IMG/VR virus record: IMGVR_UViG_2595698618_000001
Coordinates: 79,136 to 143,135 of that record
Length of the DNA: 64,000 bases
DNA from: a virus
Taxonomy: Duplodnaviria > Heunggongvirae > Uroviricota > Caudoviricetes
Direction: 5' to 3' (one strand)
Below the pieces are notes generated by a model. The model made no database searches. It had not been told where the DNA came from and saw only the letters and a program-made list of their open reading frames with translations. Numbering within the stretch: position 1 is the stretch's first letter; every line of letters begins with the position of its first letter. Shown piece after piece: positions 49,543 to 63,052 of this stretch. The position numbers were made by a program, and so were the translations under genes.

Positions 49543-49596
49543 CTTATATACTTAAGCACTCCCCGTGCCACGAGGAGTATACCACTATAAAAAGGA
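49543..49596. repeat. array repeat copy 1 (TATA-like + palindrome CTCCCCGTGcCACGAGGAG + TATACCACTATAAAAAGG)
   Basis: Direct reading. Confidence 0.8.
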
Positions 49597-49619
49597 TTCG
49601 GTCTTACTCCGAGGTGGCC

Positions 49620-50048
49620 TTACTGGAGGAGGCCAGCCGCTTCGTCCTGCATCTCGGTATCTTCGCTCTCCTCCTCGAAGTCTTCCTCGGTGGCTCCGGC
49701 GAGGGAGAAGGGAATCTCCTGCGGGAAGTCGTCGGGGTCGGCGTCACCGTCAACGCCGAGGGTGTCTCGACTGATGTAGAGTCCCGTGACTGCGCCGGAC
49801 TCGGTTTCGTAGACGCCGTAGTTGCCAGTACCCGAACCGCTGACTGACGCGAGGTGGAGGGTCCCGGTGGCGTTCTCGGAGTTGAGAACGATGTTGAGGA
49901 ACTCGGGGGCCTCCTCTCCGAATGCCTCTCCCACGATGTAGGAGGTGCAGATGGCCTGACCCGAGGCGAGGCTCGGACTGGCGAACTCGTGCTTACCGGC
50001 GCTGGTCGTCTTCTGGTGCTGAGTCGTGATGGTGGTGTTGTCTTCCAT
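49620..50048 (-). CDS. array gene: hypothetical protein (142 aa)
   Basis: ATG + promoter. Confidence 0.5.
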   Translation of the reverse strand: MEDNTTITTQHQKTTSAGKHEFASPSLASGQAICTSYIVGEAFGEEAPEFLNIVLNSENATGTLHLASVSGSGTGNYGVYETESGAVTGLYISRDTLGVDGDADPDDFPQEIPFSLAGATEEDFEEESEDTEMQDEAAGLLQ

Positions 50049-50090
50049 TGTATTTGTATTGAGGGTCGCTATGGTTATAAGGCTTTCGAC

Positions 50091-50333
50091 TTACCGCTTG
50101 AACAGGCTGGCGAGACTCGTGGAACGCTCTGCCGGAATGTGCGCGACGAGAGTATCACCGAGGCGACGAGTCGTGGCCGTCTCCTGATACCCGTTCACGC
50201 GCATCGTCCGAAAGAAGGAACCCGCGTCCTCCTCCGAAACGGTGACACGAATCCCGTTAGCGAGGTCCGAGTCCTGAAACTCTGCCGAGTCGATACCGCT
50301 GAACGCCTTGTGAACTTCGTCTGTAGTCACCAT
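50091..50333 (-). CDS. array gene: hypothetical protein
   Basis: ATG + promoter. Confidence 0.5.
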   Translation of the reverse strand: MVTTDEVHKAFSGIDSAEFQDSDLANGIRVTVSEEDAGSFFRTMRVNGYQETATTRRLGDTLVAHIPAERSTSLASLFKR

Positions 50334-50394
50334 TGCAATCTATAGTAGGGGAGTATCTGTATTAAGTCTTTCGTCTCATCGCTTGAGCAGTAGG

Positions 50395-50445
50395 TTTATA
50401 TACTAAAACACTACTCGTGCAAGACGAGTATACACCTATAAAAGA
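50395..50445. repeat. array repeat copy 2 (variant palindrome TACTCGTgcaagACGAGTA)
   Basis: Direct reading. Confidence 0.75.
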
Positions 50446-50468
50446 GTTGTGGCCTATTCCCGAACGGC

Positions 50469-51206
50469 TTAGTGGATATGGATAGCCACGTCGGGGCCTT
50501 CGGGGTTAATACAAAGGCGACACTCGCCGCATTGAATACGCTCGTCGGCGGGGACACCTTCGCTTTGCTGGATACTGTTAGGACACCATACGGCGGAGTC
50601 CGGCTTTTCGGCGGCTTCGGGAATAGCCATAAACCGGCGGTTCCCGTAGTCAGCGAGTCCGTTACTCGCGTTAACGGTGAAGTTTTCCGCTAAGTCCCAA
50701 TTGAGTTTATGACTCGCGGAGTACGTGTAAACGTCCACGTCAACTAATTCCGCGATTCTATTCACCTTAATTATGTCGGCGTTACTCCGAAAGTCACCCG
50801 CTTCGGAAAAGCGAATACTGTCGAACGGCTTACGCTTTCGGGAATTGAGACTGTTGAAAGCCTCGGCCCACATTTCAGCCGTCATACAATCCCAAAGGTA
50901 TTCCTGACGACGACGGTACGGGAGCGTTTGGGGATAGATGTTTTCGGCTTTAGCCGCGTAACACGACTCTTTGGGAACCTGACATAAGCCAGTCTCCGAC
51001 TCGCCCGACTCGGCGGTTCCGAAATTCGGACAGTCGTGTGCGCTATTCATATTGAAGATAGCGGTCGTGTTAGTTATCTTAGTGTTCCCCGACGTAATGT
51101 AGTCGCTAAGGATAAACGACCAGTCGCGGTTTGTTTCAGCGTCGGCCATCCGCGAACGAAGGTCGTCAATTCCCGATACGTCGTCTATGTCGTAGTCGTA
51201 GGCCAT
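50469..51206 (-). CDS. array gene: hypothetical protein with C-terminal CxxC
   Basis: Track start 51293 is GTG inside repeat; ATG 51206 has cgaaacACTTATA promoter 23 nt upstream. Confidence 0.5.
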   Translation of the reverse strand: MAYDYDIDDVSGIDDLRSRMADAETNRDWSFILSDYITSGNTKITNTTAIFNMNSAHDCPNFGTAESGESETGLCQVPKESCYAAKAENIYPQTLPYRRRQEYLWDCMTAEMWAEAFNSLNSRKRKPFDSIRFSEAGDFRSNADIIKVNRIAELVDVDVYTYSASHKLNWDLAENFTVNASNGLADYGNRRFMAIPEAAEKPDSAVWCPNSIQQSEGVPADERIQCGECRLCINPEGPDVAIHIH

Positions 51207-51264
51207 ACCCTTATTTGGAGAGGTAGGCATATAAGTGTTTCGTCTCGTCAGTCGAGGGGATAGG

Positions 51265-51318
51265 CTTAAGTACCAAAAGACTCCTCGTGCCACGAGGAGT
51301 ATACCACTATAAAAAGGT
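51265..51318. repeat. array repeat copy 3 (perfect palindrome)
   Basis: Direct reading. Confidence 0.8.
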
Positions 51319-51326
51319 TCCGGCGT

Positions 51327-51578
51327 TTAGACTTCTGCGCGTCGTGCGCCTTCGGCCTTGTGGAAGTAGTCGCTTGCCAGCACATCCTCGTCCCACACGA
51401 CGACGCGGAATTGTACCGAGCCGAGTTCGGCGTCCCACGCTTCGATAGTGTAATCTGCGCCGTGCTTCATATCCTTCCAGAGTAGGCCCTGTGCGACCAT
51501 ACGCGCCTCCCACACGTTTGAGACGGGCAGTTCTACTTCGTACATCACGTCGAACACAGTATGTGCGTCCATATTCAT
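51327..51578 (-). CDS. array gene: hypothetical protein
   Basis: ATG. Confidence 0.5.
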   Translation of the reverse strand: MNMDAHTVFDVMYEVELPVSNVWEARMVAQGLLWKDMKHGADYTIEAWDAELGSVQFRVVVWDEDVLASDYFHKAEGARRAEV

Positions 51579-51603
51579 TGATAGGGTCGGGGGTACTTAT
51601 ATG

Positions 51604-51939
51604 TTACGCTTCTGCCTGAACGTCGGGTCCGTGAATCTGGACAGTAGCGGCGTAGCCGAGATTGTTCTCAAGGCCGCAATGCCAGATAGTCTTGTCAACC
51701 GGGAACTCCGGGTCACTCGGACTCGAACGCAGACCTTCGACTCGGGACAGGACTACCTCCTCTCCGTTGAGGTCGAAGTGCCAGATAGTCGTCTCACGAA
51801 CTTCACCCGTTCGGGGGTCGGCGTTGTGTTTCTCAATATCCGAACACGTCATATTGAGCGTGTCACCTTCCGTCGTCTCGATAGTCACGTCGTCGCCTTC
51901 TGCGATATTCCGAACGTCGTCTGTATGGGATTCGTCCAT
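51604..51939 (-). CDS. array gene: acidic hypothetical protein
   Basis: ATG + promoter. Confidence 0.5.
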   Translation of the reverse strand: MDESHTDDVRNIAEGDDVTIETTEGDTLNMTCSDIEKHNADPRTGEVRETTIWHFDLNGEEVVLSRVEGLRSSPSDPEFPVDKTIWHCGLENNLGYAATVQIHGPDVQAEA

Positions 51940-51996
51940 ATCTTATCATAGTTGGATACACGTATAAGTCTTTCGGCTTTCGCACGAGTCCAAGGG

Positions 51997-52047
51997 TTTA
52001 TATACAATAACGCTCCTCGTGCATGACGAGTATACGGGTATAAAAGG
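51997..52047. repeat. array repeat copy 4 (variant palindrome CTCGTgcatgACGAG)
   Basis: Direct reading. Confidence 0.75.
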
Positions 52048-52285
52048 TTGGGGTCAGTAGTCGCTCAACTCGCTCTGCTCGCTTGGCGCAGGCGGGTCGA
52101 GGTAGTAGCGCGGATTATGCTCAGTCGGTTCGTTCTCCCCGAAGTCGTGTAGTATCATTCTCCTGAATTTCCTCCATCCCGAAGCCGTATTCTTCTACAT
52201 CACGAGCGCCAATCGCGGTCTTACGGTAGCGGTTGAGTTCCATTGCAATCTATTGTATGCTGGCTATTACCTTAAAGGTGTCGAT

Positions 52286-52651
52286 TCACCACGGGGGACT
52301 CGGCGCACCTCTCGGGGCAGGAGCCGTGTATCGCTCGATGAAACGGTCGCCGTCTTCCATTTCGAGCGAGGACGGGTCTATCTCGATAGTGTTCCCGTTC
52401 ATCCCCGAATATCGCTCGTAAGCGAATACGAGTTTCTTCGGGCAGTCTTCGGCGTCTCGCGTATCGCACCACGAGGACTTCGACACGACTTCGACTAACT
52501 CGCATACGTCGCCAATCTCGGTATCGAGATAGTCGTGGCCGACCTTCCAGTAGGTTCCGAATAGCCGAATACCGTTCGGGCGAGAGTCGTCACTCGGGGG
52601 AGTTGCGTGGCTGGCGTACTGGGTTCCGGTTCCGGGTTCTGCTCCGTGCAT
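52286..52651 (-). CDS. array gene: hypothetical protein
   Basis: ATG + promoter. Confidence 0.5.
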   Translation of the reverse strand: MHGAEPGTGTQYASHATPPSDDSRPNGIRLFGTYWKVGHDYLDTEIGDVCELVEVVSKSSWCDTRDAEDCPKKLVFAYERYSGMNGNTIEIDPSSLEMEDGDRFIERYTAPAPRGAPSPPW

Positions 52652-52698
52652 ACTCTCAGTAGGGGACCTGTTGACTTAAGGCTTTCGCTATCGGTGGG

Positions 52699-52750
52699 TT
52701 TATATACCTAAACGATACTCATGCCACGAGGAGTATACCACTATAAAAGG
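52699..52750. repeat. array repeat copy 5
   Basis: Direct reading. Confidence 0.75.
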
Positions 52751-52909
52751 TTCCGCCTGAAGGCTACCGGGAGTAGGGTCCGTCGTAGTCGTCGAAGGCG
52801 GCGGCCTTCACGAACTCGGGCGCACACTCGGGACAGACGTGGCTCATCTTAGTCGTGTCGAGGTCTGTCTCTCGAAGCGGTGTGTCACACTTCGGACAGG
52901 TTCGGTCGC

Positions 52910-53176
52910 TCACTTCGTCCACCCCTTTTCGCCGTGAACGTCGTCCATCGTCTCGATGACGCTACCGGGAAGGCGTGCGCGAGATTGGGTCCAGTTGTGA
53001 GTCGGTTCGGAAACGTCGCCACGAGTCTTTAGCGACCACTTGCCCGAATCCTCGAAACGCTGAAACTCGTAGATAGAGCCAGCGTCAGTCACGACTACGA
53101 ACAGTAGCCGGTCGGGGCCGAACGACTGTTGAATCGGGTCACGGAACTCGACGGCGTGAGTCACTTCTTGTGCCAT
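52910..53176 (-). CDS. array gene: hypothetical protein
   Basis: ATG + promoter. Confidence 0.5.
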   Translation of the reverse strand: MAQEVTHAVEFRDPIQQSFGPDRLLFVVVTDAGSIYEFQRFEDSGKWSLKTRGDVSEPTHNWTQSRARLPGSVIETMDDVHGEKGWTK

Positions 53177-53224
53177 ACCCTTACTACGGGTCCCCCTATA
53201 TTAAGTCTTGCGGAATCGGTGGCT

Positions 53225-53276
53225 TTATATACCATAAGTCTCCCCTTGCCACGAGGAGTATACGGGTATAAAAAGG
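53225..53276. repeat. array repeat copy 6
   Basis: Direct reading. Confidence 0.75.
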
Positions 53277-53313
53277 TTGCGGTTACTATGAGGCTCCCCG
53301 CCGCTTAAGGGCC

Positions 53314-53619
53314 TTAGCCCTCGTACTCGAAGGTCACGACGTTTGGCGAGTTGTAGTTGTCGGTTCGCACCATCCCGAAGCGTTCTGCCAACAGGTCGAG
53401 GGCTTCGGGGAGGTTCTGGTCGATACGCACTCTGTCACACGACACCATCACGTCTCCTTCGAGACTGTAGAACTGTGCCCGGAATCCGGGGAGCGAACCC
53501 ACCGCCTCGATGAAGCGGTTATCTGCCGCGTTCGGGAGAGCGTAGGGTCCGGTGTTCTCCGAGTTGAAGGAGTCCTTGTCGTACATCGCGTGCGTCAGTC
53601 GGGCATTGTCTCGTGCCAT
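53314..53619 (-). CDS. array gene: hypothetical protein
   Basis: ATG + promoter. Confidence 0.5.
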   Translation of the reverse strand: MARDNARLTHAMYDKDSFNSENTGPYALPNAADNRFIEAVGSLPGFRAQFYSLEGDVMVSCDRVRIDQNLPEALDLLAERFGMVRTDNYNSPNVVTFEYEG

Positions 53620-53678
53620 ACTACACAGTAGGGGAGGTTCACGTATAAGTCTTTCGTGTCATTGCCTACACCCCAAGC

Positions 53679-53731
53679 CTTAAGTACCAAAAGACTCCCC
53701 TTGCCACGAGGAGTAAATCACTATAAAAAGG
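53679..53731. repeat. array repeat copy 7
   Basis: Direct reading. Confidence 0.75.
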
Positions 53732-53753
53732 TTCCCATCCGCCTCGGCTTCCG

Positions 53754-54167
53754 CTACTCCGTGCGTCCCTTTGAGGTACGGTTGGGAATCATATTCTTGT
53801 GACCCAGTTCACGGAGACTCTCGGGAGGCGTACCCACAGTCGGGCGAGTGGACTTCATCTCGAAGTCGCGCCCGGATTCGAGGAGGTACTGGATGAGTTC
53901 TCGCGTGTGCCGACGAGTGGTTGCCTCACCGCCGCCGTGGTACTCCTCCTCGAAGCGGCGTTGCGCCCAGTCAGCCCATCCGCCGAAGACGCGAATCTCG
54001 CCCTCGGGAGACACGTCAGCGATTTTGCCCCAGTTGTACGCGAGGAGCGCGAACGTCCCGTCAGGCAGTTCCGTCAGGTTCAGACTGTTCCGGTGGTTGG
54101 AACCGGGGAACGTCCGGTTCTTGAAGGCGCGTCGAATCTCGTCGTTGGTGTACGTAATTTCACTCAT
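53754..54167 (-). CDS. array gene: hypothetical protein, paralog of 56853..57266
   Basis: Shared NRT.P.S..N...L.NG..ALL.Y.W..IA.V.P.G.I pattern. Confidence 0.55.
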   Translation of the reverse strand: MSEITYTNDEIRRAFKNRTFPGSNHRNSLNLTELPDGTFALLAYNWGKIADVSPEGEIRVFGGWADWAQRRFEEEYHGGGEATTRRHTRELIQYLLESGRDFEMKSTRPTVGTPPESLRELGHKNMIPNRTSKGRTE

Positions 54168-54392
54168 TGTCTGCGTTTGTGTTATGGTTAGGGTTTGTAT
54201 TAAGTCTTTCTACTCGCCGCGAATCTCTCGCTCCATCTCGACGTAATCCCGAAACTCCTCGGGAGCCTGCTGTTCGTCTTGAGCGATACGCTGGTACTGC
54301 TCCTCATCCTCAGTCTCTTGGGTTCTTCGTCCCATACACTACAGTAGGGGACACCCTATATTAAGCCTTTCGCCTCTCGTGCAATCGGTGGC

Positions 54393-54444
54393 TTTAAGTA
54401 CCATAACACTCCCCATGCACGAGGAGTATACCACTATAAAAAGA
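54393..54444. repeat. array repeat copy 8
   Basis: Direct reading. Confidence 0.75.
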
Positions 54445-54461
54445 TTCCGCCTGCCCCTTCC

Positions 54462-54785
54462 CTACTCCCAACGCTCAACCACAGGTCCGTCAGTAGGTCC
54501 GTGGTAGAAAGCGTAGGAGAACTCATCCTTGTGGTAGTGTCGGCATTGCGGATTGTTGCAGTAATACCCAACGTCGTCTCTTTCGACAGGGCTGACGTGC
54601 CAATGTCGGAGCATCGTCGGGTGTCCACACTTCGGACAGTCGTGTTCGACTATCTGAATACGCTGGCCGCTGTCTCCGAGTCCTCGAACGAACGACACGC
54701 TATCCTTCGCTGTGCTGATAACTTCTACCGAGCGGTCTTCCTCACCGTAGTACCCTTCAATCGCGGGAGTGGCGCTTCGTGCCAT
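54462..54785 (-). CDS. array gene: zinc-finger protein (CPKCGH...CNNPQC)
   Basis: ATG + promoter. Confidence 0.5.
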   Translation of the reverse strand: MARSATPAIEGYYGEEDRSVEVISTAKDSVSFVRGLGDSGQRIQIVEHDCPKCGHPTMLRHWHVSPVERDDVGYYCNNPQCRHYHKDEFSYAFYHGPTDGPVVERWE

Positions 54786-54834
54786 ACACCTACTTGGAGA
54801 CGTACTGTATTAAGTCTTCCGGTTAACCGAAGGC

Positions 54835-54887
54835 TTTATATACCTAAACGATACTCATGCCACGAGGAGCGTAAGGGTATAAAAAGG
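54835..54887. repeat. array repeat copy 9
   Basis: Direct reading. Confidence 0.75.
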
Positions 54888-55039
54888 TTGCGTCGTTCAG
54901 ATGACGCTTTCGCCTTGCTTCTCGAAGTAGCAGACGATGGTTAATTCTTCTCGATGCTCGAAGGAAATATCCCGAGCGTTGTCGGGAATCTCTATCTTGT
55001 CACCGGAGACGACGGCCTTCCGTCGAAAGATGTATTCGG

Positions 55040-55360
55040 TCATCGTAGGTTGTGTTCGTCCACGAAGTCTTTCACGGCGACTAACTCTTGACCGAGGAAG
55101 TAGCCGTCAGCGAAGTCGTAGGCGACGGGATACTTCAAGTCCGTACCCTCGCGGTAGTCGCTCATCGAGTGATTCGACAGCGCACCGTAGAAATGCGTCT
55201 GGAAAGCCGACCACGCATCTCCCGAAAACTCGACTGCCGTATCGTCGATTACGAGAATCACGCCTCGACCGACACCGGGACGCTTTGCTACGAGAAACTC
55301 GCGGGACGAGTCTACTTCAATGGACGGGACGTGCGGGTTGATGGCTTCGTGTTCTGCCAT
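55040..55360 (-). CDS. array gene: hypothetical protein
   Basis: Start trimmed to ATG (MAEHEA) 21 nt after gcgaaaggCTTAAGTG. Confidence 0.5.
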   Translation of the reverse strand: MAEHEAINPHVPSIEVDSSREFLVAKRPGVGRGVILVIDDTAVEFSGDAWSAFQTHFYGALSNHSMSDYREGTDLKYPVAYDFADGYFLGQELVAVKDFVDEHNLR

Positions 55361-55407
55361 ACCTTTGCTACGCACCATACTCACTTAAGCCTTTCGCAAT
55401 ACGAGGG

Positions 55408-55459
55408 TTTAAGTACCAAAGACTCCCCGTGCCACGAGGAGTATACGGGTATAAAAGGT
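55408..55459. repeat. array repeat copy 10
   Basis: Direct reading. Confidence 0.75.
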
Positions 55460-55519
55460 TGCGGTCCTACTCCTTCTCGTCAGAAGGGTAGGCTATCTGA
55501 CTTAACCAGAGCCAGAATT

Positions 55520-55735
55520 TCATCGGAACAGGTACTCGTACTCTCCGAAGGGGTTTTGGCCTTCGACCTTCATTACAGCGTCCGTCTCCTCGCATATTTC
55601 ATCGAGGGTATCGAGCGGCACTTCCGAGTCTGCCGAGATTTGGACGTGAGGGCCGTAAGCGTCGTCGTACTCGATAGACGCACGCACTCCGGCAATCTGT
55701 TCCGCCTTCCGCTTGAGGTTGGTAAGAGAGGTCAT
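55520..55735 (-). CDS. array gene: hypothetical protein
   Basis: ATG. Confidence 0.45.
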   Translation of the reverse strand: MTSLTNLKRKAEQIAGVRASIEYDDAYGPHVQISADSEVPLDTLDEICEETDAVMKVEGQNPFGEYEYLFR

Positions 55736-55745
55736 CTCCGTTTAG

Positions 55746-55856
55746 TTAGAGGGACCACGACCCCTTAAGGGTTTCGATACGCCGCGCCCTTTCTTGCAGT
55801 CGCTTACACTTCTCACAATTCACGTCTCCACTCGGATGGCGTTTACAACTTGCCAT
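55746..55856 (-). CDS. array gene: zinc-binding mini-protein (36 aa)
   Basis: Track start lies in repeat (GTG); ATG 55856 has promoter ggaagACTTATTA 22 nt upstream. Confidence 0.4.
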   Translation of the reverse strand: MASCKRHPSGDVNCEKCKRLQERARRIETLKGSWSL

Positions 55857-55914
55857 ACACTCTACTACTCGCAACAGGGTAATAAGTCTTCCTACTTCGA
55901 GGCACACCAAAGGC

Positions 55915-55967
55915 TTTATATAGGTAAAGCCTCCCCGTGCCACGAGGAGTAAACCCCTATAAAAAGG
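55915..55967. repeat. array repeat copy 11
   Basis: Direct reading. Confidence 0.75.
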
Positions 55968-56032: not shown

Positions 56033-56716
56033 CTACCACGCAACCTCCTTGAAGAATACCTTGTGGTCTGACGTGTCACCACGCTGATAGTCGAACAGCG
56101 CCCATTGGAACAGGAAGGAACTGCCGGTTTCTTCTACGAGGGTCGGGAAGTGCGACTTGATTTCATCGACAGCGGCCTCGTACTTTTCCACGACCACAGT
56201 AGTCGGGCGTTCCGTACCTGTAGCCTGCATTACATTAGTGTCGATACACATCTTTTCCGTAAACCCGAGCATCGCTAAGACGAACGGGGCTTTTGCAGGA
56301 CCAACACCCTTGAAATTATCAAGGACGAACTTGTGTGCCTTGTCTAATTCGTCCGACATTAGGAGATTAGCGACCTTCTCCCACTCGCGGCCAGACTGAA
56401 GCGAATCCATAATGTAATCCGCCTTATTCTTGTAGTAGTTGCACGACTTGATTGAATCCCGAATTTCCGAAACGGAAAGGGGAAGCCCATTAGCGAACAG
56501 GTTCCGAAACGCCTTTTCGTGAACGTTGACAGGTGTTTGAACTGACAGGACCGCCCAAGCGTGACTCTTTTGAAGCATTTCCACTTTGACCGACATATCA
56601 CTATTCTCGAATTTCTTGCGAGTGAATAGTAATTCGTTCCGAACCTTACGGTAGTGGGTACGGTTGCGGCGGAAGTGGTTCGTTGCGTGCAGGGCCGTTA
56701 TCGGGTCCATACCCAT
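56033..56716 (-). CDS. array gene: hypothetical protein (227 aa)
   Basis: ATG + promoter. Confidence 0.5.
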   Translation of the reverse strand: MGMDPITALHATNHFRRNRTHYRKVRNELLFTRKKFENSDMSVKVEMLQKSHAWAVLSVQTPVNVHEKAFRNLFANGLPLSVSEIRDSIKSCNYYKNKADYIMDSLQSGREWEKVANLLMSDELDKAHKFVLDNFKGVGPAKAPFVLAMLGFTEKMCIDTNVMQATGTERPTTVVVEKYEAAVDEIKSHFPTLVEETGSSFLFQWALFDYQRGDTSDHKVFFKEVAW

Positions 56717-56767
56717 AGTAGGGGAGTGACTGTATTAAGGCTTTCGGTTGGCTCCTCCGAGCGGTAG

Positions 56768-56820
56768 TTTTATATACCATAATCCTCCTCGTGCCACGAG
56801 GAGTATACCCCTATAAAAAG
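56768..56820. repeat. array repeat copy 12 (perfect palindrome)
   Basis: Direct reading. Confidence 0.8.
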
Positions 56821-56852
56821 ATGCCGGTGCGCCTTCGCGTTATTACCGGCTT

Positions 56853-57266
56853 CTACTTGCGGTGCTTGAGGCGGCGGTTCATCGTGGTTCGCACACTCTC
56901 CTGAGCGTTCTGCTCCACGGGGGAGAGGCTCTCGAAGTCGCCCACGTAGTTGCCAGAGTATTCGATAGTCTCCGGCACAGTACCGTCCACGGGGTTACTC
57001 TTGAGGGAAGTCAGGCGAGCGTCATCGAAGTGACCCTTCACTCTGTCGATGTGGTTGTCCGTAGTCTTCGACGTACCGTAGTGGCCCTCGTACACGAGAA
57101 TGTCGCCAGTAGGCGTCACTTCCGCGATACGCGCCCAATCGTAGGACAGAAGCGCGACGTTCCCATTACCGAGACGCACGGTGTTGATGGAGCAGGACGG
57201 GATGGTACGGTTCGGCGTGTGGTTGTCGAACGCTTCGAGCAGGTCGGCGGTGGTGTTGACGTACAT
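56853..57266 (-). CDS. array gene: hypothetical protein, paralog of 53754..54167
   Basis: Shared motif pattern. Confidence 0.55.
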   Translation of the reverse strand: MYVNTTADLLEAFDNHTPNRTIPSCSINTVRLGNGNVALLSYDWARIAEVTPTGDILVYEGHYGTSKTTDNHIDRVKGHFDDARLTSLKSNPVDGTVPETIEYSGNYVGDFESLSPVEQNAQESVRTTMNRRLKHRK

Positions 57267-57360
57267 AGTCGGATTTGTCGGAGGGCTTCTTTGTCCCTCC
57301 TTACTCTATCCAAAGAGAGGCATACGTATAAACCTGTCGCTTCTCTCGCCAGTCGGTAGT

Positions 57361-57413
57361 TTTATATACCATAATCCTCGCCATGTCACGAGGAGTAAAC
57401 CCCTATATAAAAG
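57361..57413. repeat. array repeat copy 13
   Basis: Direct reading. Confidence 0.75.
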
Positions 57414-57431
57414 TATCGCCCGCCGTCGCCT

Positions 57432-57899
57432 TCAGCCAGTCGGCGTCGTGCTTTTCGTAGCCGGGCACTTCTGGCACGAGTATTTCGTCGCTACCCGAGC
57501 GTTGTGCTTTTGGTGAGGATTCGTACACTTCCAGTCGTGCGAGTCACCGTCCGTACACGTCGCGTCACGGTTGGCACACTTGCCACACTTCACGCCAGCG
57601 AAGCCCGTGCTTACGTTGTTCTCGAACGGGAAGGTATCGCTACACTTCTTGCACACGAGTCGGTCTTCTGACACGAGCCACGACACGACTTTCTCAACTT
57701 CCGACACGTCCATCAGGTCAGACGGTCGAAACGCTTCGGGGACTATCTTCGGGTTCTCCTCGATTACGCTGAGATAAACCGCCTTACCGTCAATCCACGC
57801 ACCGGGTTCGGACGCACCCATACGTGAGTCGGGGCCACGGACTTGCTGGATAGTCACGTCTCGCCCGTTCGCTTCGTATTCTGCCTTGTAGTGAGGCAT
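57432..57899 (-). CDS. array gene: Cys-rich protein (multiple CxxC)
   Basis: ATG + promoter. Confidence 0.5.
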   Translation of the reverse strand: MPHYKAEYEANGRDVTIQQVRGPDSRMGASEPGAWIDGKAVYLSVIEENPKIVPEAFRPSDLMDVSEVEKVVSWLVSEDRLVCKKCSDTFPFENNVSTGFAGVKCGKCANRDATCTDGDSHDWKCTNPHQKHNARVATKYSCQKCPATKSTTPTG

Positions 57900-57957
57900 A
57901 CCCTACCTTGGGGCTATGGGTACTTAATCCTGTCGGTACGCTCGTGCGAGGGTAAGG

Positions 57958-58010
57958 TTTATATACCATAACGCTCGTCTTGCACGAGGAGTATACCACT
58001 ATAAAAAGGT
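57958..58010. repeat. array repeat copy 14
   Basis: Direct reading. Confidence 0.75.
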
Positions 58011-58030
58011 TTCGCCGCACCGCCCGCCCC

Positions 58031-58423
58031 TTACTTCAGGGGTTCGTAGTCGTAACGAGCCGCCCTTTCGTTCACCATCGTAGTGCAGTATTCTATGTCG
58101 TACTTCTCGATGGCCGCGCCAGCGTTGCGGATTTTTGCAGGACCGAACACTTCGAGGAGAAGCGGCGTGTTACTCCCGTCAGCGTGCAGGAATGCGTCGA
58201 ACAGGTAGCCCTTCCAGAGTTTCGTGAAGAAGCCGCCAGCCACCTCACACGGGTTCCGGCCTTCTTCGAGGACCGTACCACCGTATCCCGAATCGAGTTC
58301 CTGCCGAACGCTGTGCCGACCCTCAGCCGCCGACAGGTACACCGAGATGAACGCCTCACTCGCGCCAGCGTCTTTCAGGTCAGCCGTGCCAAACTTCCGC
58401 TCGTTGTTGGAGTGTTGCTCCAT
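58031..58423 (-). CDS. array gene: hypothetical protein
   Basis: ATG + promoter. Confidence 0.5.
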   Translation of the reverse strand: MEQHSNNERKFGTADLKDAGASEAFISVYLSAAEGRHSVRQELDSGYGGTVLEEGRNPCEVAGGFFTKLWKGYLFDAFLHADGSNTPLLLEVFGPAKIRNAGAAIEKYDIEYCTTMVNERAARYDYEPLK

Positions 58424-58480
58424 ACCCTTTCTTGGAGAGGTACTGTATTAAGCGTTTCGGTATGAAGCCGCGTCGAAGCC

Positions 58481-58532
58481 TTTAAGTACCATAACGCTCC
58501 TCGTGCCACGGGAAGTATACCACTATAAAAAG
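58481..58532. repeat. array repeat copy 15
   Basis: Direct reading. Confidence 0.75.
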
Positions 58533-58544
58533 ATTCCGGCTACC

Positions 58545-58811
58545 CTACCAAGGCTCAACCGTAGGGTCGCGTGTCATTTCATGCATCATTTGAGCCTGCC
58601 GGTCGCGTTCCATCTCACAGTACGGGCACTCGCCAGACGGGTACGGGCTTTTTCGCAGTTCATGAATCGTGCAACAAACGTCGGGGTCGTCGCTCGTGAA
58701 ACGCCCGCAGTCGGTGCAACGGTTCACGCCCTCGCCCGCAGGGTGTCCCTTGACGAAGCCGCAGGACTGGCAAAACGTCGCTACTTTGAGTCGGCCAAGT
58801 TCTCGGGCCAT
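58545..58811 (-). CDS. array gene: zinc-ribbon protein
   Basis: CQSCG...CTDCG...CPYC. Confidence 0.5.
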   Translation of the reverse strand: MARELGRLKVATFCQSCGFVKGHPAGEGVNRCTDCGRFTSDDPDVCCTIHELRKSPYPSGECPYCEMERDRQAQMMHEMTRDPTVEPW

Positions 58812-58868
58812 ACTCTGTATAGGGGTTAGGGGTACTTAAACCTGTCGCCATGAATCATGGTCGAAGGG

Positions 58869-58920
58869 TTTATATACTATAATACTCGTCGTGCCACGAG
58901 GAGTATACCACTATAAAAAG
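58869..58920. repeat. array repeat copy 16
   Basis: Direct reading. Confidence 0.75.
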
Positions 58921-58944
58921 GTTCCGCCCAAGCCACCGCTTGCT

Positions 58945-59190
58945 TTATCGGTCGTGCTTTGCCGCTTCTTTCACCGCCGCCTTTCGCGCCTTCGAGTGAG
59001 GCACGCCCTTCTTTTCCACGAGGCGGTTCGTGAGGCGCACGGCAAGGTCTTCTTGCCCTTCGGTGAGGCCAGCGTCGAACGAGGCGATGCGCGTGTGTCC
59101 GTCCCAATGGTCGGGCATCACTCCGGCCATACCCTCGTCCTGCTCGTTCGTGTAGGCTCTCATATCGAATCCGCTTTGGCTTTCTGCCAT
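58945..59190 (-). CDS. array gene: hypothetical protein
   Basis: ATG + promoter. Confidence 0.5.
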   Translation of the reverse strand: MAESQSGFDMRAYTNEQDEGMAGVMPDHWDGHTRIASFDAGLTEGQEDLAVRLTNRLVEKKGVPHSKARKAAVKEAAKHDR

Positions 59191-59247
59191 ACTCTATACT
59201 TATCGCATACCCACTTAAGTCTGTCGCTTCGAGGCGGCGTCGATACC

Positions 59248-59300
59248 TTTATATATCATAATACTCCTCGTGCCACGAGGAGTAAACCCATATAAAAAGG
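59248..59300. repeat. array repeat copy 17 (perfect 11-bp arms)
   Basis: Direct reading. Confidence 0.8.
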
Positions 59301-59314
59301 TTTCGCCCGCTCGC

Positions 59315-59752
59315 TTACCGGAGGTAACTGTATTCCTGTTCGCCCACTTCCGCGAGGTCGGGGTACTCTTTGGCGAGGGTACTCGCGTTGACGCTCACGA
59401 AGTCGTGGAAGTTGATGCCCTTCGCCACCGCACGCATCACCACAGACGTTTCATCTTCCGCGAGGTACTTCCGGTGGCTCTCGATGTGGCTGATTCCGAG
59501 GAGGCTCTCGCCCGGAGCCACACGCTCCTTGAGTTCGGCGTCGGCCACGTCTTTCCGCACAGACTCGCTCACTTTCTCCACGGCCTTGATAGCCTCACGG
59601 AGTCGGACGAGTTCGGTGTTCGTCATTGCCGCAACGTCCATCGCATCGAGCGAATCGAGTTCACTCTCGATTGCCCACAGGTTCGCCGTGGTGTCGCTGT
59701 TGTTCGTCGGCGTGGTGCTGGTTGACGCGATTGCGGCTTCGTTGTCTTCCAT
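59315..59752 (-). CDS. array gene: hypothetical protein
   Basis: Start trimmed to ATG (MEDNEA). Confidence 0.45.
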   Translation of the reverse strand: MEDNEAAIASTSTTPTNNSDTTANLWAIESELDSLDAMDVAAMTNTELVRLREAIKAVEKVSESVRKDVADAELKERVAPGESLLGISHIESHRKYLAEDETSVVMRAVAKGINFHDFVSVNASTLAKEYPDLAEVGEQEYSYLR

Positions 59753-59814
59753 TGCGTATGAACACAAGGGAGGTAGTGGTATAAGTCTTGTGGTGTGTTG
59801 TTACTACCACAACC

Positions 59815-59866
59815 TTTAAGTACCATAATCCTCCTCGTGCCATGCGGAGCATAACACTATATAAAA
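59815..59866. repeat. array repeat copy 18
   Basis: Direct reading. Confidence 0.75.
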
Positions 59867-60001
59867 GTACCGCCCGCCTACCTCAAAAGCCGCACTTGTG
59901 GCAGACGAGGACGTTCCCAACGCCTTCTCCCGCGTACATCGGTACGAGTTCCATCCGCTCCTCGCACCGCTCGCACCAGTCGTATTGAGTGAGCGTCGGC
60001 A

Positions 60002-60208
60002 TTATTCGATGAACAGAACGCCGCGTGCGTGCATCAGTTTATCCACCTGAACTGTCGCCTCGGGGAAGTGAATCTCCGAACCGTCGCCTAACGCGAGACG
60101 CTCGCCGTGGAAGTTGAGTGCGCCCGCGTCACCGATTGGCTCGCCCTCGTCCGAGTGCGCGACGTACTTGCCCGCTCGCTTCACGACCGAAGTGGCTTTG
60201 CTTGCCAT
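60002..60208 (-). CDS. array gene: hypothetical protein (~68 aa)
   Basis: Track start in repeat (GTG); internal ATG (MASKATS). Coordinates ±2 nt. Confidence 0.4.
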   Translation of the reverse strand: MASKATSVVKRAGKYVAHSDEGEPIGDAGALNFHGERLALGDGSEIHFPEATVQVDKLMHARGVLFIE

Positions 60209-60265
60209 ACCTTTGCTACGAGGGATAGGGTAATAAGTGTTTCGCCGTGTTGTTACTACCCGAAG

Positions 60266-60319
60266 GCTTAAGTAGGGTAATCCTCCTCGTGCCACGAGGA
60301 GTAAACCCCTATAAAAAGG
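60266..60319. repeat. array repeat copy 19 (perfect)
   Basis: Direct reading. Confidence 0.8.
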
Positions 60320-60328
60320 TTTCGCCCC

Positions 60329-60538
60329 TTACGCTTCTTCGCAGGGCGTGTAGGTGTCGCAAGTCGGGCACAATTCAGCCACGCCGCCGTACTCGCGTAG
60401 GGCGATGGCCTTGCCCCCGTAGGCTACGGGGAAGACGGTGTTACACTCTTGGCACTCAAGGGCGTGGGTCGCCCACAGGTCGGTGTCAGCGTCGAATCCC
60501 ACACGAGTCCTCTCGTCAGCAGTCTGGCTCTCTGCCAT
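60329..60538 (-). CDS. array gene: zinc-ribbon protein
   Basis: CQECN...CPTCD. Confidence 0.5.
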   Translation of the reverse strand: MAESQTADERTRVGFDADTDLWATHALECQECNTVFPVAYGGKAIALREYGGVAELCPTCDTYTPCEEA

Positions 60539-60597
60539 GATTCTACCTACGAGGGATAGGGTAATAAGTGTTTCGATGTTGGCTCATGAACGTAAGC

Positions 60598-60650
60598 CTT
60601 ATATACCATAACGCTCGTCGTGCCACGAGGAGTAATCCCCTATATAAACC
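60598..60650. repeat. array repeat copy 20
   Basis: Direct reading. Confidence 0.75.
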
Positions 60651-60698
60651 TTCCGCCTGCTTCTACTTCCGCAAAAAAGTGTCGCTTCTCTGAGGCTT

Positions 60699-60986
60699 CT
60701 ACTTCTCGACGTAGGCCACCTTGCCAATGTCGCTGTATCGCCCGAGGCCGTCGTGGTGTCCGTGGATGTACCCAATGTCGCTGTACCACGTATGGGTGTC
60801 CATTTCTGCCTGAAGGTTGCTCGTCGGCTTGAAGCACACGTCTCCGAAACTCGTGGAATCGACCGTCGCCTCGAAAGAGCGAACGCCGAGGTGTCCCGCC
60901 GCTCGGGAATTGACGTGAACGATAACCGTGTCGCCTGCTTCGAGGTCTTCCGCGCTAACACGTTCGAGGGTGGAGTTTTGCTCCAT
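60699..60986 (-). CDS. array gene: hypothetical protein
   Basis: ATG + promoter. Confidence 0.5.
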   Translation of the reverse strand: MEQNSTLERVSAEDLEAGDTVIVHVNSRAAGHLGVRSFEATVDSTSFGDVCFKPTSNLQAEMDTHTWYSDIGYIHGHHDGLGRYSDIGKVAYVEK

Positions 60987-61068
60987 ACTCTATACAGGAG
61001 GGGAGGGTATATAAGGTTGTCGCATCACATCTAATCTCATGAAATAAACCCTGCAAGTAAGGGTAACG

Positions 61069-61121
61069 CTTATATACCAAAAGACTCCTCATGCCACGAG
61101 GAGTAAACCCCTATATAAAAG
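61069..61121. repeat. array repeat copy 21
   Basis: Direct reading. Confidence 0.75.
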
Positions 61122-61145
61122 TTCCGCCTGACGCTCCGCCTCGCG

Positions 61146-61328
61146 CTATCGCACCACGCCGAGCCTTCGGTTCAGAGCGGGGCTTTCCAGACGCCGCTTC
61201 GCCGCCTCCGCCTCACGCTTGCTCTCGTGTCGCTCTAACACACGCTCCTCGACGCCGAAGGGCGTACTGGTGTGCGCGATTACCTTCCACTTGCCTTGCT
61301 CCGAGTTGATGGCCTTCTGTCGTGCCAT
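61146..61328 (-). CDS. array gene: basic small protein
   Basis: ATG + promoter. Confidence 0.45.
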   Translation of the reverse strand: MARQKAINSEQGKWKVIAHTSTPFGVEERVLERHESKREAEAAKRRLESPALNRRLGVVR

Positions 61329-61386
61329 ACTACTACTCTATCGGGTAAGGTAATAAGTCTTCTGGTGTGTTGTCGCTACCAATACC

Positions 61387-61440
61387 TTTAAGTAGGGTAA
61401 TCCTCCTCGTGCCACGAGGAGTAAACCCCTATATAAAAGT
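61387..61440. repeat. array repeat copy 22 (perfect)
   Basis: Direct reading. Confidence 0.8.
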
Positions 61441-61456
61441 TCCGCCCGAGTTTCCT

Positions 61457-61717
61457 TCAGCGTTTCGCGGGCTTGAAGTAAGCCACCTCGTCGTCAATCC
61501 CGTCAGCCCACCACGCTGTACCCTCCTCGAAGTCGTCGCACTCCGCTTGTGCCGCTTCCTTCGAGTGGAAGGCTTCGGTTCGGTAGAGTTCGTTCCCGTC
61601 CTCGTCAAACGCCGCGAGTTCCCACGGGGGAGCGTCCTGTTGCTCTAACCGCCGCATCTCTCGCATATGCTTGCGTTCCGAGGCCATCGACGCCATTCCG
61701 TCAGGGGTTCGTCCCAT
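61457..61717 (-). CDS. array gene: hypothetical protein
   Basis: ATG + promoter. Confidence 0.5.
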   Translation of the reverse strand: MGRTPDGMASMASERKHMREMRRLEQQDAPPWELAAFDEDGNELYRTEAFHSKEAAQAECDDFEEGTAWWADGIDDEVAYFKPAKR

Positions 61718-61776
61718 ACCTCTACCAAGGGTAGCTATCGTATTAAGTGTTTCGGTTCGCTCGCACGAGGGGAAGG

Positions 61777-61826
61777 TTTATATACCATAACACTACTCGT
61801 GCAAGGCGAGTAAACCCCTATAAAAA
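61777..61826. repeat. array repeat copy 23 (variant palindrome TACTCGtgcaaggCGAGTA, same type as copy 2)
   Basis: Direct reading. Confidence 0.75.
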
Positions 61827-61852
61827 CATTGCGCCTTCCGCAAGTTTCGCTC

Positions 61853-62104
61853 CTACTGCGAGCCGCGCACCATCCTCCGGCCAGTCTCAACCTTGCCCTT
61901 ATCTTCCACGTCGAAGCCCGCATCATACAAGTCCGTCAGGAGGTTGACGTAATCCTTCGCGTCACGGGCCGCCTCGATGAACACCGTCACGTCAGTCGTC
62001 AGACCACTACTGCCAACGTTAACCTCCATTGACACTTGGCTGACGTTCTCGTAATCCATCTTGATTTGCTGGACGGCCTTGCGCGGGTTGGTTGCTTCAA
62101 CCAT
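61853..62104 (-). CDS. array gene: hypothetical protein
   Basis: ATG + promoter. Confidence 0.5.
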   Translation of the reverse strand: MVEATNPRKAVQQIKMDYENVSQVSMEVNVGSSGLTTDVTVFIEAARDAKDYVNLLTDLYDAGFDVEDKGKVETGRRMVRGSQ

Positions 62105-62160
62105 ACTCTTACTCTATTTGCCAAGGGTATAAGTCTTCCGGTATCAAACGCCGTCGAAGC

Positions 62161-62212
62161 CTTTATGTATCATAACACTCCTCGTGCCACGGGGAGCAAA
62201 CCCCTATATAAA
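62161..62212. repeat. array repeat copy 24
   Basis: Direct reading. Confidence 0.75.
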
Positions 62213-62226
62213 TCCTGCGGCCAGCC

Positions 62227-62289
62227 CTAACTCGTCAGAGCCAGCCAAGCCGCAAATATCAGCAGGATTACAAGTCCTTCAACTATCAT
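62227..62289 (-). CDS. hydrophobic micro-ORF (MIVEGLVILLIFAAWLALTS), one of three conserved copies
   Basis: TAAATG junction after 62290..62562; similar peptides at ~48896..48965 and ~55985..56045. Confidence 0.35.
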   Translation of the reverse strand: MIVEGLVILLIFAAWLALTS

Positions 62290-62562
62290 TTACTCCACGA
62301 TTTCGTAACCCATTTTCTCCATCCGGTACTTCGCGTGGTCGCGCTTCTCCTCCTCGAATTTTGAGGCGATTCCCGCGAGTTCGCCCGAGGTGAAGTGGTC
62401 CACCTCCTGCCAGTCACGCGCCGCGTCGTAGACGTTGAACGAGTAGCCGCCGTACCAGACACACGCGAGGCCGTCGTCGTTGAATCCGATGAGTTTCGCG
62501 CCGTCCGTCGCTCGGGTAACTTTCTGCGCCATACCGCTTCTGGTTGCGTTGACTCCAACCAT
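62290..62562 (-). CDS. array gene: hypothetical protein
   Basis: ATG + promoter ggaaggTTTATACC 23 nt upstream. Confidence 0.5.
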   Translation of the reverse strand: MVGVNATRSGMAQKVTRATDGAKLIGFNDDGLACVWYGGYSFNVYDAARDWQEVDHFTSGELAGIASKFEEEKRDHAKYRMEKMGYEIVE

Positions 62563-62619
62563 ACTATACCATTATCGCGTTAGGGTATAAACCTTCCGGT
62601 TCGTCGCCCCGCCGGTAAC

Positions 62620-62672
62620 TTTATATACCATAATACTCCTCGTGCCACGGGGAGCAAACACCTATATAAAAG
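62620..62672. repeat. array repeat copy 25
   Basis: Direct reading. Confidence 0.75.
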
Positions 62673-62979
62673 CACCGCAAAGCCGCCCGCCTTTCTTACA
62701 GGCAGGCCGCGATAAATCCAATCAGGCCGATTCCCCACAACACCGCACCAAACAGGGCAACTTTCACTTGAGGTGTCATTTAGATGATGTGTCGCAGGGG
62801 GTTCTTGTGTTCGCAGGGGAAACCGCCGTCCACCTCAGTCTTGTTACCGCACGGACAAATTGGGTGTCCAAATTGGTCTTGGGTGAAGCCTTCGGGTAGG
62901 AGTTCGCTTGGTATCTCCATACTCTGTATAGTATCGGGGGTATATTAAGCCTTTCGGTTCGCTCGTCCGAGGGAAACGC

Positions 62980-63031
62980 TTATATAGGTGTTTCCTCCTC
63001 GTGCCATGGGGAGTATTCGGGTATATAAACT
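62980..63031. repeat. array repeat copy 26 (most divergent, terminal)
   Basis: Direct reading. Confidence 0.7.
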
Positions 63032-63052
63032 TTCGGGTAGGGGCCAAAATTG

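Follow-up and report, generated by a model that had tools for sequence, protein, structure and literature searches.

What is the repeated element that separates the small minus-strand genes at one end of an archaeal virus genome, and what does it do there? The stretch of DNA analysed here (the window, 64,000 nt) comes from Halogranum tailed virus 1 (HGTV-1; NC_021328.1/KC292026.1; 143,855 bp; Halomagnusviridae), to which window positions 49000–63500 match at 100 per cent identity in megablast. Record positions equal window positions plus 79135, an offset checked across all 64 kb. The element is about 66 nt long, with a 9+1+9-nt dyad between two TATA-like boxes, and it occurs in 26 copies in a single array. 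We read it, with a little more confidence than doubt, as a composite terminator/operator/promoter cassette of HGTV-1-like viruses, an archaeal functional analogue of the promoter-early stem-loops (PeSLs) of T4-type phages.

The feature is already known, and the published PeSL-like reading was independently re-derived here. According to the account in Sencilo and Roine (2014, PMC3950731), a TATA box-like region with an inverted repeat motif was reported in HGTV-1 by Sencilo et al. (2013, RNA Biol 10:803), who likened it to T4-type PeSLs and suggested that it helps to regulate transcription and to shuffle the genome. A whole-genome scan of HGTV-1 found no other TATA-plus-inverted-repeat family, only generic promoters and tRNA-related repeats, and because no other motif fits, the published one must be this element. 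An earlier reading of the window, made from its letters (the sequence-only reading), had taken the element to be undescribed as a family, which the account in PMC3950731 contradicts. The motif was noted at sequencing and never followed up, at a time when HGTV-1 was without relatives for comparison.

Copies were counted with nhmmer, by searching all 143,855 bp of the genome with a profile of 21 seed copies; this search replaced an over-permissive fuzzy one (up to five errors). The profile returned exactly 26 full copies, all in one orientation, with E values from 1e-12 to 6e-21, and a repeat search of the window recovered the same family. The array spans 49537–63037 with starts from 49537 to 62973 and a start-to-start spacing of 319–869 bp, so that the earlier count of 26 copies at 320–870-bp intervals holds. 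In the rest of the genome there is no full copy, and such matches as occur are partial or degenerate. The array holds 29 instances of the half-site CTCCTCGTG, and the remaining sequence three (about 1.1 expected). The 26-copy array is real and far beyond chance. Its elements separate about 36 small minus-strand genes. The region is the right end of the deposited record (128.7–142.2 kb), a block of about 40 such genes, nearly all of them annotated as hypothetical. The genome is circularly permuted, which puts this block directly beside the terminase gene, on its left.

On the gene strand, each unit begins at a stop codon and continues through 5–60 nt, CGGAAC or CGAAAC, a C, TTTTTATAG and 7 nt to the dyad, CTCCTCGTG-G-CACGAGGAG. 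After the dyad come 8 nt, TATATAAA, a spacer of 12–25 nt (48 nt in one copy), CGAAAG-n-CTTAAGT, 22 or 23 nt, and the ATG of the next gene. The left box, CTTTTTATAG, is a T5/TATA box behind CGGAAC, which resembles a transcription factor B (TFB) recognition element (BRE); the right box, TATATAAAG, carries an inverted BRE-like CG. The T5 tract is shortened to T3–T4 in eight copies, and the spacing of the two boxes around the dyad is invariant. In the alignment the dyad is perfect over 9+1+9 nt in copies 3, 12, 17, 19 and 22, as the sequence-only reading had listed. The different self-complementary cores that it described in copies 2, 4 and 23 are also present, as shifted cores; these three share with copies 8 and 14 a 19-nt core that is one base short. 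The profile also hits the element when it is read on the other strand (E down to 3e-13), so that the full ~66 nt form a pseudo-palindrome.

All 26 copies lie between a stop codon and a BRE/TATA-N22/23-ATG promoter, as had been claimed, once read-through open reading frames (ORFs) are set aside as artefacts. A strict pattern search places the promoter 22 or 23 nt from the ATG in at least 22 of the 26 units, and the other four are near variants. The module that follows each copy is the consensus found before genes and operons genome-wide. Where an interval holds two genes, the second has this generic promoter and lacks the element; the element is therefore an extra, array-specific module and not the basic promoter. 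The further suggestion that its plus strand mimics a gene start failed on spacing, which is about N28 there and N22 at real gene starts.

The generic consensus itself, CGAAAG-n-CTTAAGTAG followed after about 20 nt by (A)GTATG, occurs on both strands, before genes and operons, over the whole HGTV-1 record. This arrangement implies that the mRNAs are mostly leaderless, and it could be used for genome-wide start-codon re-annotation.

Relatives and the order of cassettes

Apart from HGTV-1, the phage collection searched has no isolate of the family, and its 50,697 records include no isolate with a large terminase nearer than ~30 per cent identity (tblastn). The exact HGTV-1 dyad has no match in IMG/VR. 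Relatives were found instead via proteins and a flank-based pattern. A homolog of gene 279 (72 per cent identity) led to IMG/VR contig 3300003629_000015 (L005), and the flank-only pattern CTTTTTATAG-N14-TG-N-CA-N15-TATATAAA led to six more metagenome contigs (L013–L018). This pattern is absent from 185,579 representative prokaryotic genomes, among which the exact dyad has six single matches, all in unrelated bacterial metagenome-assembled genomes and taken as chance. A host operator or a provirus origin is therefore unsupported.

We compared four lineages, namely HGTV-1, L005, L014 and the P_1C contigs (L013 and L015–L018). The architecture and spacing of the element are the same in L005 and L013–L018, where it stands on the gene strand every 250–900 bp and is followed by the generic promoter and a small gene. 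The flank consensus common to the lineages is CGGWAC-CTTTTTATAG-N14-TG-N-CA-N15-TATATAAAG. Each TATA box has a BRE-like CGGWAC on its outer side, so that the unit consists of BRE-like motif, TATA, 7 nt and half-site, repeated in inverted orientation. The four lineages hold 26, at least 20, 16 and at least 22 same-orientation copies, each lineage with its own core (Table 1). Core identity is 0.85–0.93 within genomes and 0.36–0.80 between them, and the corresponding figures for the TATA flanks are 0.81–0.93 and 0.82–0.89.

Short length, terminal inverted TATA-like ends and high copy number are features that the element shares with miniature inverted-repeat transposable elements (MITEs), and a selfish element of that kind could have spread through the intergenic spacers without any regulatory role. 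We regard this as very improbable. The copies are strictly in one orientation, fixed between stop codon and promoter in every case and confined to one gene block; the architecture recurs at the same relative position in four lineages; and neither a transposase nor target-site duplications were seen.

A further relative, L010 (IMGVR_UViG_3300003629_000035; terminase 72 per cent identical), has an array upstream of the terminase in which an invariant, perfect 16-bp palindrome, TTTCACCATGGTGAAA, occurs 19 times (L010 positions 600–5500). T-runs or small GC/terminator hairpins come first, and TTTCACCATGGTGAAA then abuts the TATA box of a leaderless promoter. The L010 array is a different solution to the same layout. 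L005 also contains 18-nt tandem repeats (TTTTGGCAAGTCTCAAAT) at 150–300 and 2660–2770.

For cassette maps, the ORFs of all contigs were clustered and the elements marked in HGTV-1, L005, L014, L016, L017 and L015/L018 (Table 1). Gene order in the array is reshuffled cassette by cassette among the relatives, with the same genes in different order between equivalent elements. The two-gene cassettes 288-287 and 302-301 move as units. L005 has one cassette more than L016, an element plus a gene 278 homolog between the homologs of 292 and 296, and compared with L015 its g311 and F17 cassettes are swapped; the alignment ends at elements. As a control, structural genes 2–8 and 11 are collinear, as far as the contigs extend, in the terminase-bearing contigs L006–L010 at 34–92 per cent protein identity. 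The comparison thus gives support to the PeSL-like shuffling suggested in 2013, and to the same idea in the sequence-only reading, in that cassette order differs and the structural module does not.

The elements also behave differently from the genes beside them. Over its first 45 nt from the ATG, gene 296 is identical in L005 and L016, yet the element before it belongs in each case to the type of the genome that carries it. Evolution of the elements is therefore concerted within a genome and separate from that of the genes next to them. Such concerted change implies frequent exchange between copies; the same process would move cassettes.

Some sub-variants that have several private substitutions in common lie kilobases apart and not next to each other: c02 and c23 (50391 and 61771), c05 and c09 (52693 and 54830), and c19 and c22 (60263 and 61383). 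Their scatter fits gene conversion, or the movement of cassettes, inside the genome.

Genes 287 and 295 (53754–54167 and 56853–57266; 137 aa each) are the one paralog pair, as described earlier. Both are found in L005 (3270–3650 and 7384–7797), with a homolog also in L014, L016 and L017, and relatives have duplicates of genes 281 and 302 as well. From these duplications it follows that cassette duplication accompanies shuffling.

Whole-cassette movement, two-gene cassettes included, would also be expected if a dedicated recombinase recognised the dyad as a site-specific recombination site (integron attC- or resolvase-like), and dyad-symmetric, lineage-specific cores are what a co-evolving recombinase would leave. 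We nevertheless think such a site improbable. No integrase or recombinase is annotated in the whole 143.9-kb record, and none was found by domain in flanking gene 313 or in the largest array proteins. Unlike integron cassettes, those of HGTV-1 carry a promoter each, and the L010 palindrome abuts each TATA box in the manner of a transcription-factor site. Moreover, long near-identical direct repeats together with the RadA, Hjc (Holliday junction resolvase) and RecB-like/PD-(D/E)XK nuclease genes of HGTV-1 are enough for homologous exchange.

Hairpin, operator or promoter

Under the composite reading, the T5 tract would end transcription of the upstream gene, and the BRE/TATA boxes would recruit the host TATA-binding protein and TFB. 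By analogy with the HF2 repeats considered below, transcription would start 22–24 nt downstream of the flanking TATA box, inside the dyad. The dyad would serve as operator for a dimeric regulator, specific to the lineage and probably encoded by the virus, and would not be mainly an RNA hairpin; about 26 early transcription units would thus be switched in common. Between the 26 near-identical direct repeats, homologous recombination or gene conversion would homogenise the copies and excise, insert and reorder cassettes. The operator, promoter and terminator roles are predictions from sequence, for HGTV-1 and its relatives alike.

The dyad can also be read as in a classical PeSL. In this alternative it acts as an RNA stem-loop (or by DNA extrusion) and, with the T-tract, terminates or attenuates read-through, leaving the TATA boxes as promoters only. 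This is the reading given in the literature, as far as the account in PMC3950731 goes, and PeSL stem-loops are proven terminators in phi1/RB49 (PMC2839356). The five perfect copies would form 9-bp stems. The sequence-only reading had argued from maintained dyad symmetry for either a selected hairpin or cruciform or a dimer-binding site, and had proposed a covariation test of the core.

That test gave no compensatory covariation in any of the four lineages. Not one of the nine pairs in HGTV-1 is changed on both sides, and 88.2 per cent of all cells are paired, compared with 89.6 per cent after shuffling of the 3' partners. Three symmetric pairs are the same in every copy (T36/A52, C40/G48 and T42/A46), and one-sided variation is frequent at 38/50, 39/49 and 41/47. 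RNAalifold found no consensus helix among the copies. Nor do arms pair better with their own partners than with the arms of other copies (arm shuffle, P = 1.0, 0.155, 1.0 and 0.76 in the four lineages). The modal, well-conserved L005 copy forms only six of nine pairs at about -1.5 kcal/mol, and across all L005 copies the median is -1.9 kcal/mol (z about 0). In addition, the T-tract lies upstream of the would-be stem and not downstream of it, and archaeal termination does not depend on hairpins.

A selected hairpin is not supported by these comparisons, and we consider the stem-loop terminator unlikely; of the two options offered earlier, the dimer-type operator fits better. Its two arms would be half-sites that each fit a degenerate, lineage-specific consensus, which is the pattern expected from selection by a dimeric DNA-binding protein. 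Because both arms changed together between lineages, the dyad symmetry appears to be functional at the level of the consensus. The binding partner would be viral rather than host, since the exact dyad is absent from haloarchaeal genomes.

Several points weigh against the composite operator reading. The HGTV-1 copies do fold, with a mean of -8.8 kcal/mol and z = -2.4, and a hairpin would explain the joint change of both arms between lineages equally well. The covariation tests are limited in power, the copies within a genome being paralogous and homogenised. The reading does not account for two BRE/TATA boxes that face inward, a T5 tract terminates archaeal transcription only modestly, and the regulator gene is still a putative one, with no candidate identified. 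Lastly, breakpoints at gene boundaries could partly reflect selection against disrupted genes and not element-mediated exchange.

A narrower form of the operator reading is possible, and we advance it tentatively, as something we would sooner doubt than assert. In it, the dyad is no hairpin, and a virus-encoded dimeric factor that controls about 26 promoters at once co-evolves with its operator, which lies between inward-facing BRE/TATA boxes at every early unit, and the homogenised repeats drive cassette exchange; phage-like repressor/stoperator co-evolution would thus be combined with PeSL-type shuffling. The specificity groups would be CTCCTCGTG, ATCCTCATG, TACGATATG/TCCAGTATG and the unrelated TTTCACCATGGTGAAA.

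The inward-facing boxes suggest one more possibility, a convergent or bidirectional promoter. Both boxes would fire across the dyad, which would be their shared initiation region, and plus-strand antisense RNA would run against the 3' end of the upstream gene. The inverted-repeat structure of the unit, with its spacing invariant in four lineages, and the match to its own profile on the opposite strand are in keeping with this, and in HF2 there are long counter-transcripts and some repeats with reverse promoter activity (PMC8707807). An initiation region read by host polymerase leaves the lineage-specific cores unexplained, however, and because all 26 copies keep one orientation relative to the genes, the asymmetry between the T5 side and the TATATAAAG side must matter. 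We give the convergent promoter little credence.

Two other ideas about the dyad were rejected. Flip-flop inversion of the core in c02, c04, c08, c14 and c23 (the minus strand of c14 resembles the plus strand of c02) proved an over-reading, as the same tolerant symmetric positions are changed in either arm. Viral genes for RtcB and RNA ligases brought a bulge-helix-bulge splicing motif into consideration, but 3-nt bulges flanking a 4-bp helix are missing from the dyad.

The comparative evidence makes a protein-binding site particular to each lineage a likelier role for the palindrome than a terminator hairpin. If the reading is confirmed, the array would offer a tractable regulon of many promoters in which to study how archaeal transcription is controlled. 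The results are of moderate interest to archaeal virologists and directly testable.

Individual copies and array genes

The 26 copies, with partial copies nearby and the cores and maps of the relatives, are given in Table 1. The two half or variant copies on the plus strand sit at the convergent end of the neighbouring gene block.

Table 1. Copies of the element in HGTV-1 (window positions), related partial copies, and dyad cores and cassette maps by lineage. In the maps, a slash marks one element.
Feature	Position	Strand	Core or description	TATA	ATG (gene)	E value
Whole array	49537..63037	-	26 elements; repeat search, profile search, alignment			
c01	49537..49602	-	CTCCTCGTG-G-CACGGGGAG	49508-49514	49485 (276)	5e-18
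c02	50391..50454	-	one base short, TACTCGT-CTTGC-ACGAGTA		50333 (278)	2e-12
c03	51260..51324	-	perfect dyad	51229-51235	51206 (279, corrected start)	9e-21
c04	51993..52050	-	variant CTCGTCATG-CACGAGGAG	51962-51968	51939 (281)	2e-12
c05	52693..52758	-	CTCCTCGTG-G-CATGAGTAT	52674-52680	52651 (283)	2e-17
c06	53219..53283	-	CTCCTCGTG-G-CAAGGGGAG	53199-53205	53176 (285)	4e-19
c07	53675..53735	-	CTCCTCGTG-G-CAAGGGGAG	53643-53649	53619 (286)	5e-17
c08	54387..54452	-	18-nt CTCCTCGTG-CATGGGGAG	54359-54365	54335 (two-gene cassette 288-287)	1e-17
c09	54830..54894	-	CTCCTCGTG-G-CATGAGTAT	54808-54814	54785 (289)	2e-15
c10	55404..55465	-	CTCCTCGTG-G-CACGGGGAG	55383-55389	55360 (291, predicted true start)	9e-15
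c11	55911..55974	-	CTCCTCGTG-G-CACGGGGAG	55880-55886	55856 (293-292)	2e-19
c12	56763..56828	-	perfect dyad	56733-56739	56710 (294, HhH-GPD-like)	6e-21
c13	57355..57421	-	CTCCTCGTG-A-CATGGCGAG; unusually long spacer		57266 (295)	5e-18
c14	57953..58016	-	18-nt CTCCTCGTG-CAAGACGAG	ATTAAGT-N22-ATG	57899 (296)	5e-18
c15	58476..58541	-	CTTCCCGTG-G-CACGAGGAG	58446-58452	58423 (297)	3e-19
c16	58864..58929	-	CTCCTCGTG-G-CACGACGAG	58834-58840	58811 (298)	7e-21
c17	59242..59308	-	perfect dyad	59213-59219	59190 (299)	4e-20
c18	59811..59875	-	CTCCGCATG-G-CACGAGGAG		59752 (300)	3e-17
c19	60263..60326	-	perfect dyad	60231-60237	60208 (302, corrected start, then 301)	8e-20
c20	60593..60658	-	CTCCTCGTG-G-CACGACGAG; overlapping gene 304 probably spurious	60562-60568	60538 (303)	6e-19
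c21	61064..61129	-	CTCCTCGTG-G-CATGAGGAG	61009-61015	60986 (305)	1e-19
c22	61383..61447	-	perfect dyad	61351-61357	61328 (306)	1e-19
c23	61771..61836	-	variant TACTCG-CCTTGCA-CGAGTA	61741-61747	61717 (307)	1e-15
c24	62156..62221	-	CTCCCCGTG-G-CACGAGGAG	62127-62133	62104 (308)	3e-18
c25	62614..62678	-	CTCCCCGTG-G-CACGAGGAG; overlapped by annotated gene 310	62586-62592	62562 (309)	8e-18
c26, first in transcription order	62973..63037	-	CTCCCCATG-G-CACGAGGAG; overlapped by gene 312	62943-62949	62920 (311)	1e-13
Degenerate copy between genes 276 and 275	49105..49146 (profile match 49118-49146)	-	left half decayed; right arm, TATA-like box and proximal promoter kept			
Lone BRE/T5-TATA end downstream of gene 275	48808..48827	-	GCGAAACCTTTTTATAGT on minus strand; profile positions 47-66			0.04
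Half copy, sense orientation, before plus-strand gene 268	46844..46879	+	right arm GGCATGAGGAG + TATATAAAG		46928 (268)	3e-5, 6e-3
Partial copy before plus-strand gene 270	47228..47264	+	TTTATATACC box + different small hairpin (TCGCCTTGCCCCGAAGGGCGA)			1e-5
Dyad core, HGTV-1			CTCCTCGTG.CACGAGGAG			
Dyad core, L014			ATCCTCATG.CATGRGGAT			
Dyad core, P_1C contigs (L013, L015-L018)			TCCAGTATG.CATAGTGGA			
Dyad core, L005			TACGATATG.CATAGTGGA; few perfect TACGATATG.CATATCGTA			
Cassette map, HGTV-1			...303 / 302-301 / 300 / 299 / 298 / 297 / 296 / 295 / 294 / 293-292 ... 288-287 / 286 ... 281-280 / 279 / 278-277 / 276			
Cassette map, L014			303 / u / u / F19 / 298 / 302-301 / 300 / 302' / 299 / 296 / u / 281 ... 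294-295			
Cassette map, L005			299 / 311 / F17 / F18 / F25 / F9 / ..295 / 292 / 278 / 296 / 294 / 297 / .. / 288-287 / 281..280 / .. / 279 / .. / 276			
Cassette map, L016			295 / 292 / 296 / 294 / 286			
Cassette map, L015			299 / F17 / 311-F19 / F9 / 303 / F18			

Several annotated genes run into the repeat. For genes 279, 302 and 304 the annotated GTG start falls within the dyad (affected stretches 51207–51293, 60209–60295 and 60543–60626), and ORFs 304, 310 (62580–62738) and 312 (62945–63148) overlap elements, their shared pseudo-motif MARG..WY..L..RRNTY being translated repeat. The three GTG starts and the overlapping ORFs 310 and 312 are annotation artefacts of the repeat. By the TATA-N22/23-ATG rule the true starts are predicted at 51206 for gene 279, 60208 for 302, 55360 for 291 and 56710 for 294; the discrepancies with the annotated starts of the last two genes fall at 55361–55375 and 56711–56716.

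Many of the array proteins are small and Cys-rich, as the sequence-only reading had said. Its size range of 36–274 aa needs correction at the upper end, where the 274-aa gene, 279 (50469–51206), is really about 245 aa from the ATG at 51206. This gene is the best conserved of the array (71–72 per cent identity in L005) and matches Pfam GP88 (PF17338, E = 4e-10) and phrog_1392 (E = 5e-62). Gene 294 has a weak HhH-GPD/Ogg-like match below the Pfam cut-off, and almost all other array proteins tested have no family match in Pfam or PHROG.

At the head of the array, the non-coding interval between gene 313 and c26 (63040–63250) contains short tandem-like units, CAGCATTTCGG and CGACATTTCAGTATTTCG. 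Upstream of gene 313, from 63957 to the end of the window and on to record position 143416, lies a 325-nt AT-rich spacer with repeated TTCATGACATGAA and CATGAATTTAAC. These two repeat-rich non-coding stretches may have a regulatory function or be origin-like.

Comparison with known systems

The array is not a clustered regularly interspaced short palindromic repeat (CRISPR) array, in which spacers are uniform and 25–50 bp long; here the intervals are 319–869 bp and hold promoter-bearing genes, and the record has no cas genes. Nor do Rfam covariance models have a match at the gathering threshold in window positions 47000–64000. Integrons come closer, with tandem single-gene cassettes parted by imperfect palindromes (attC) and with content and order that vary between relatives. 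Integron repeats are cassette-specific, whereas those of HGTV-1 are near-identical within the genome, and the HGTV-1 array is without an attI site or common promoter. The integron/attC analogy of the sequence-only reading was accordingly dropped, as cassettes have their own promoters, no integrase is annotated and the elements are homogenised within the genome.

The stoperators of Cluster A mycobacteriophages are repressor sites present in 20–30 intergenic copies, oriented with transcription, and their consensus is genome-specific and co-varies with the cognate repressor (Mavrich and Hatfull 2019, PMC6550527; PMC9283540). HGTV-1 likewise has many same-orientation copies, and a genome-specific consensus is seen in all four lineages, with the 19 copies of another palindrome in L010 as a further case. 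In contrast, stoperators are 13–14 bp, asymmetric, bound by a monomer, spread over the whole temperate genome and mostly not associated with promoters, whereas the HGTV-1 site is dyad-symmetric, lies between TATA boxes and is restricted to a single block of genes in a virulent archaeal virus, and its binding protein is putative.

The class I intergenic repeats of HF2, a haloarchaeal myovirus, have 58 conserved bp that include a BRE, a TATA box of the CTTTAAGT type and a conserved stretch of initially transcribed sequence; their positions are conserved across the genus (Russ, Pfeiffer and Dyall-Smith 2021, PMC8707807). Reporter assays and primer extension proved them to be promoters, with the start about 26 nt downstream of the CTTTAAGT TATA (PMC8707807). 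Both are conserved viral repeats of promoter type, and the HGTV-1 dyad lies 22–24 nt past the TATA box, where the HF2 repeats initiate; in HGTV-1 the activity is predicted. HF2 differs in having only seven class I copies, which head long operons. With one variant copy excepted, its repeats lack a 9+9 dyad; they also lack a symmetric second TATA box and have no reported cassette shuffling. The two viruses belong to different families (Hafunaviridae and Halomagnusviridae), and there is no sequence homology between the repeats.

The closest parallel remains the PeSL, the analogy drawn in 2013 and again in the sequence-only reading. To the 2013 description the present analysis adds relatives, lineage-specific cores, covariation tests and cassette maps, which the accessible papers do not mention. 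There are differences from PeSLs as well. The promoters here are BRE/TATA and those of PeSLs sigma-70 (-35/-10); the genes here are leaderless and without Shine-Dalgarno sequences; one fixed architecture replaces the five stem-loop placements of PeSLs; and the core is genome-specific. Here there is no evidence that the dyad is selected as a stem, and the two elements have no sequence homology. What they have in common is the layout (Arbiol 2010, PMC2839356; Comeau 2014, PMC4122927): intergenic repeats between a stop and the next start, in a plastic block of small ORFans, that pair a dyad with a promoter of the host's type, and close relatives in which the intervening genes are inserted, deleted or reordered. 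All 26 HGTV-1 copies lie in one 13.5-kb block with indels and reordering at the motifs among relatives, and in place of sigma-70 sequences an archaeal BRE-like CGGWAC plus TATA, a predicted promoter, is conserved in four lineages. Small-gene cassettes, each apparently with a promoter of its own, are punctuated by a composite TATA/dyad element, much as the analogy had proposed. If it is true, modular gene exchange via repeated regulatory cassettes arose in bacterial and archaeal tailed viruses alike.

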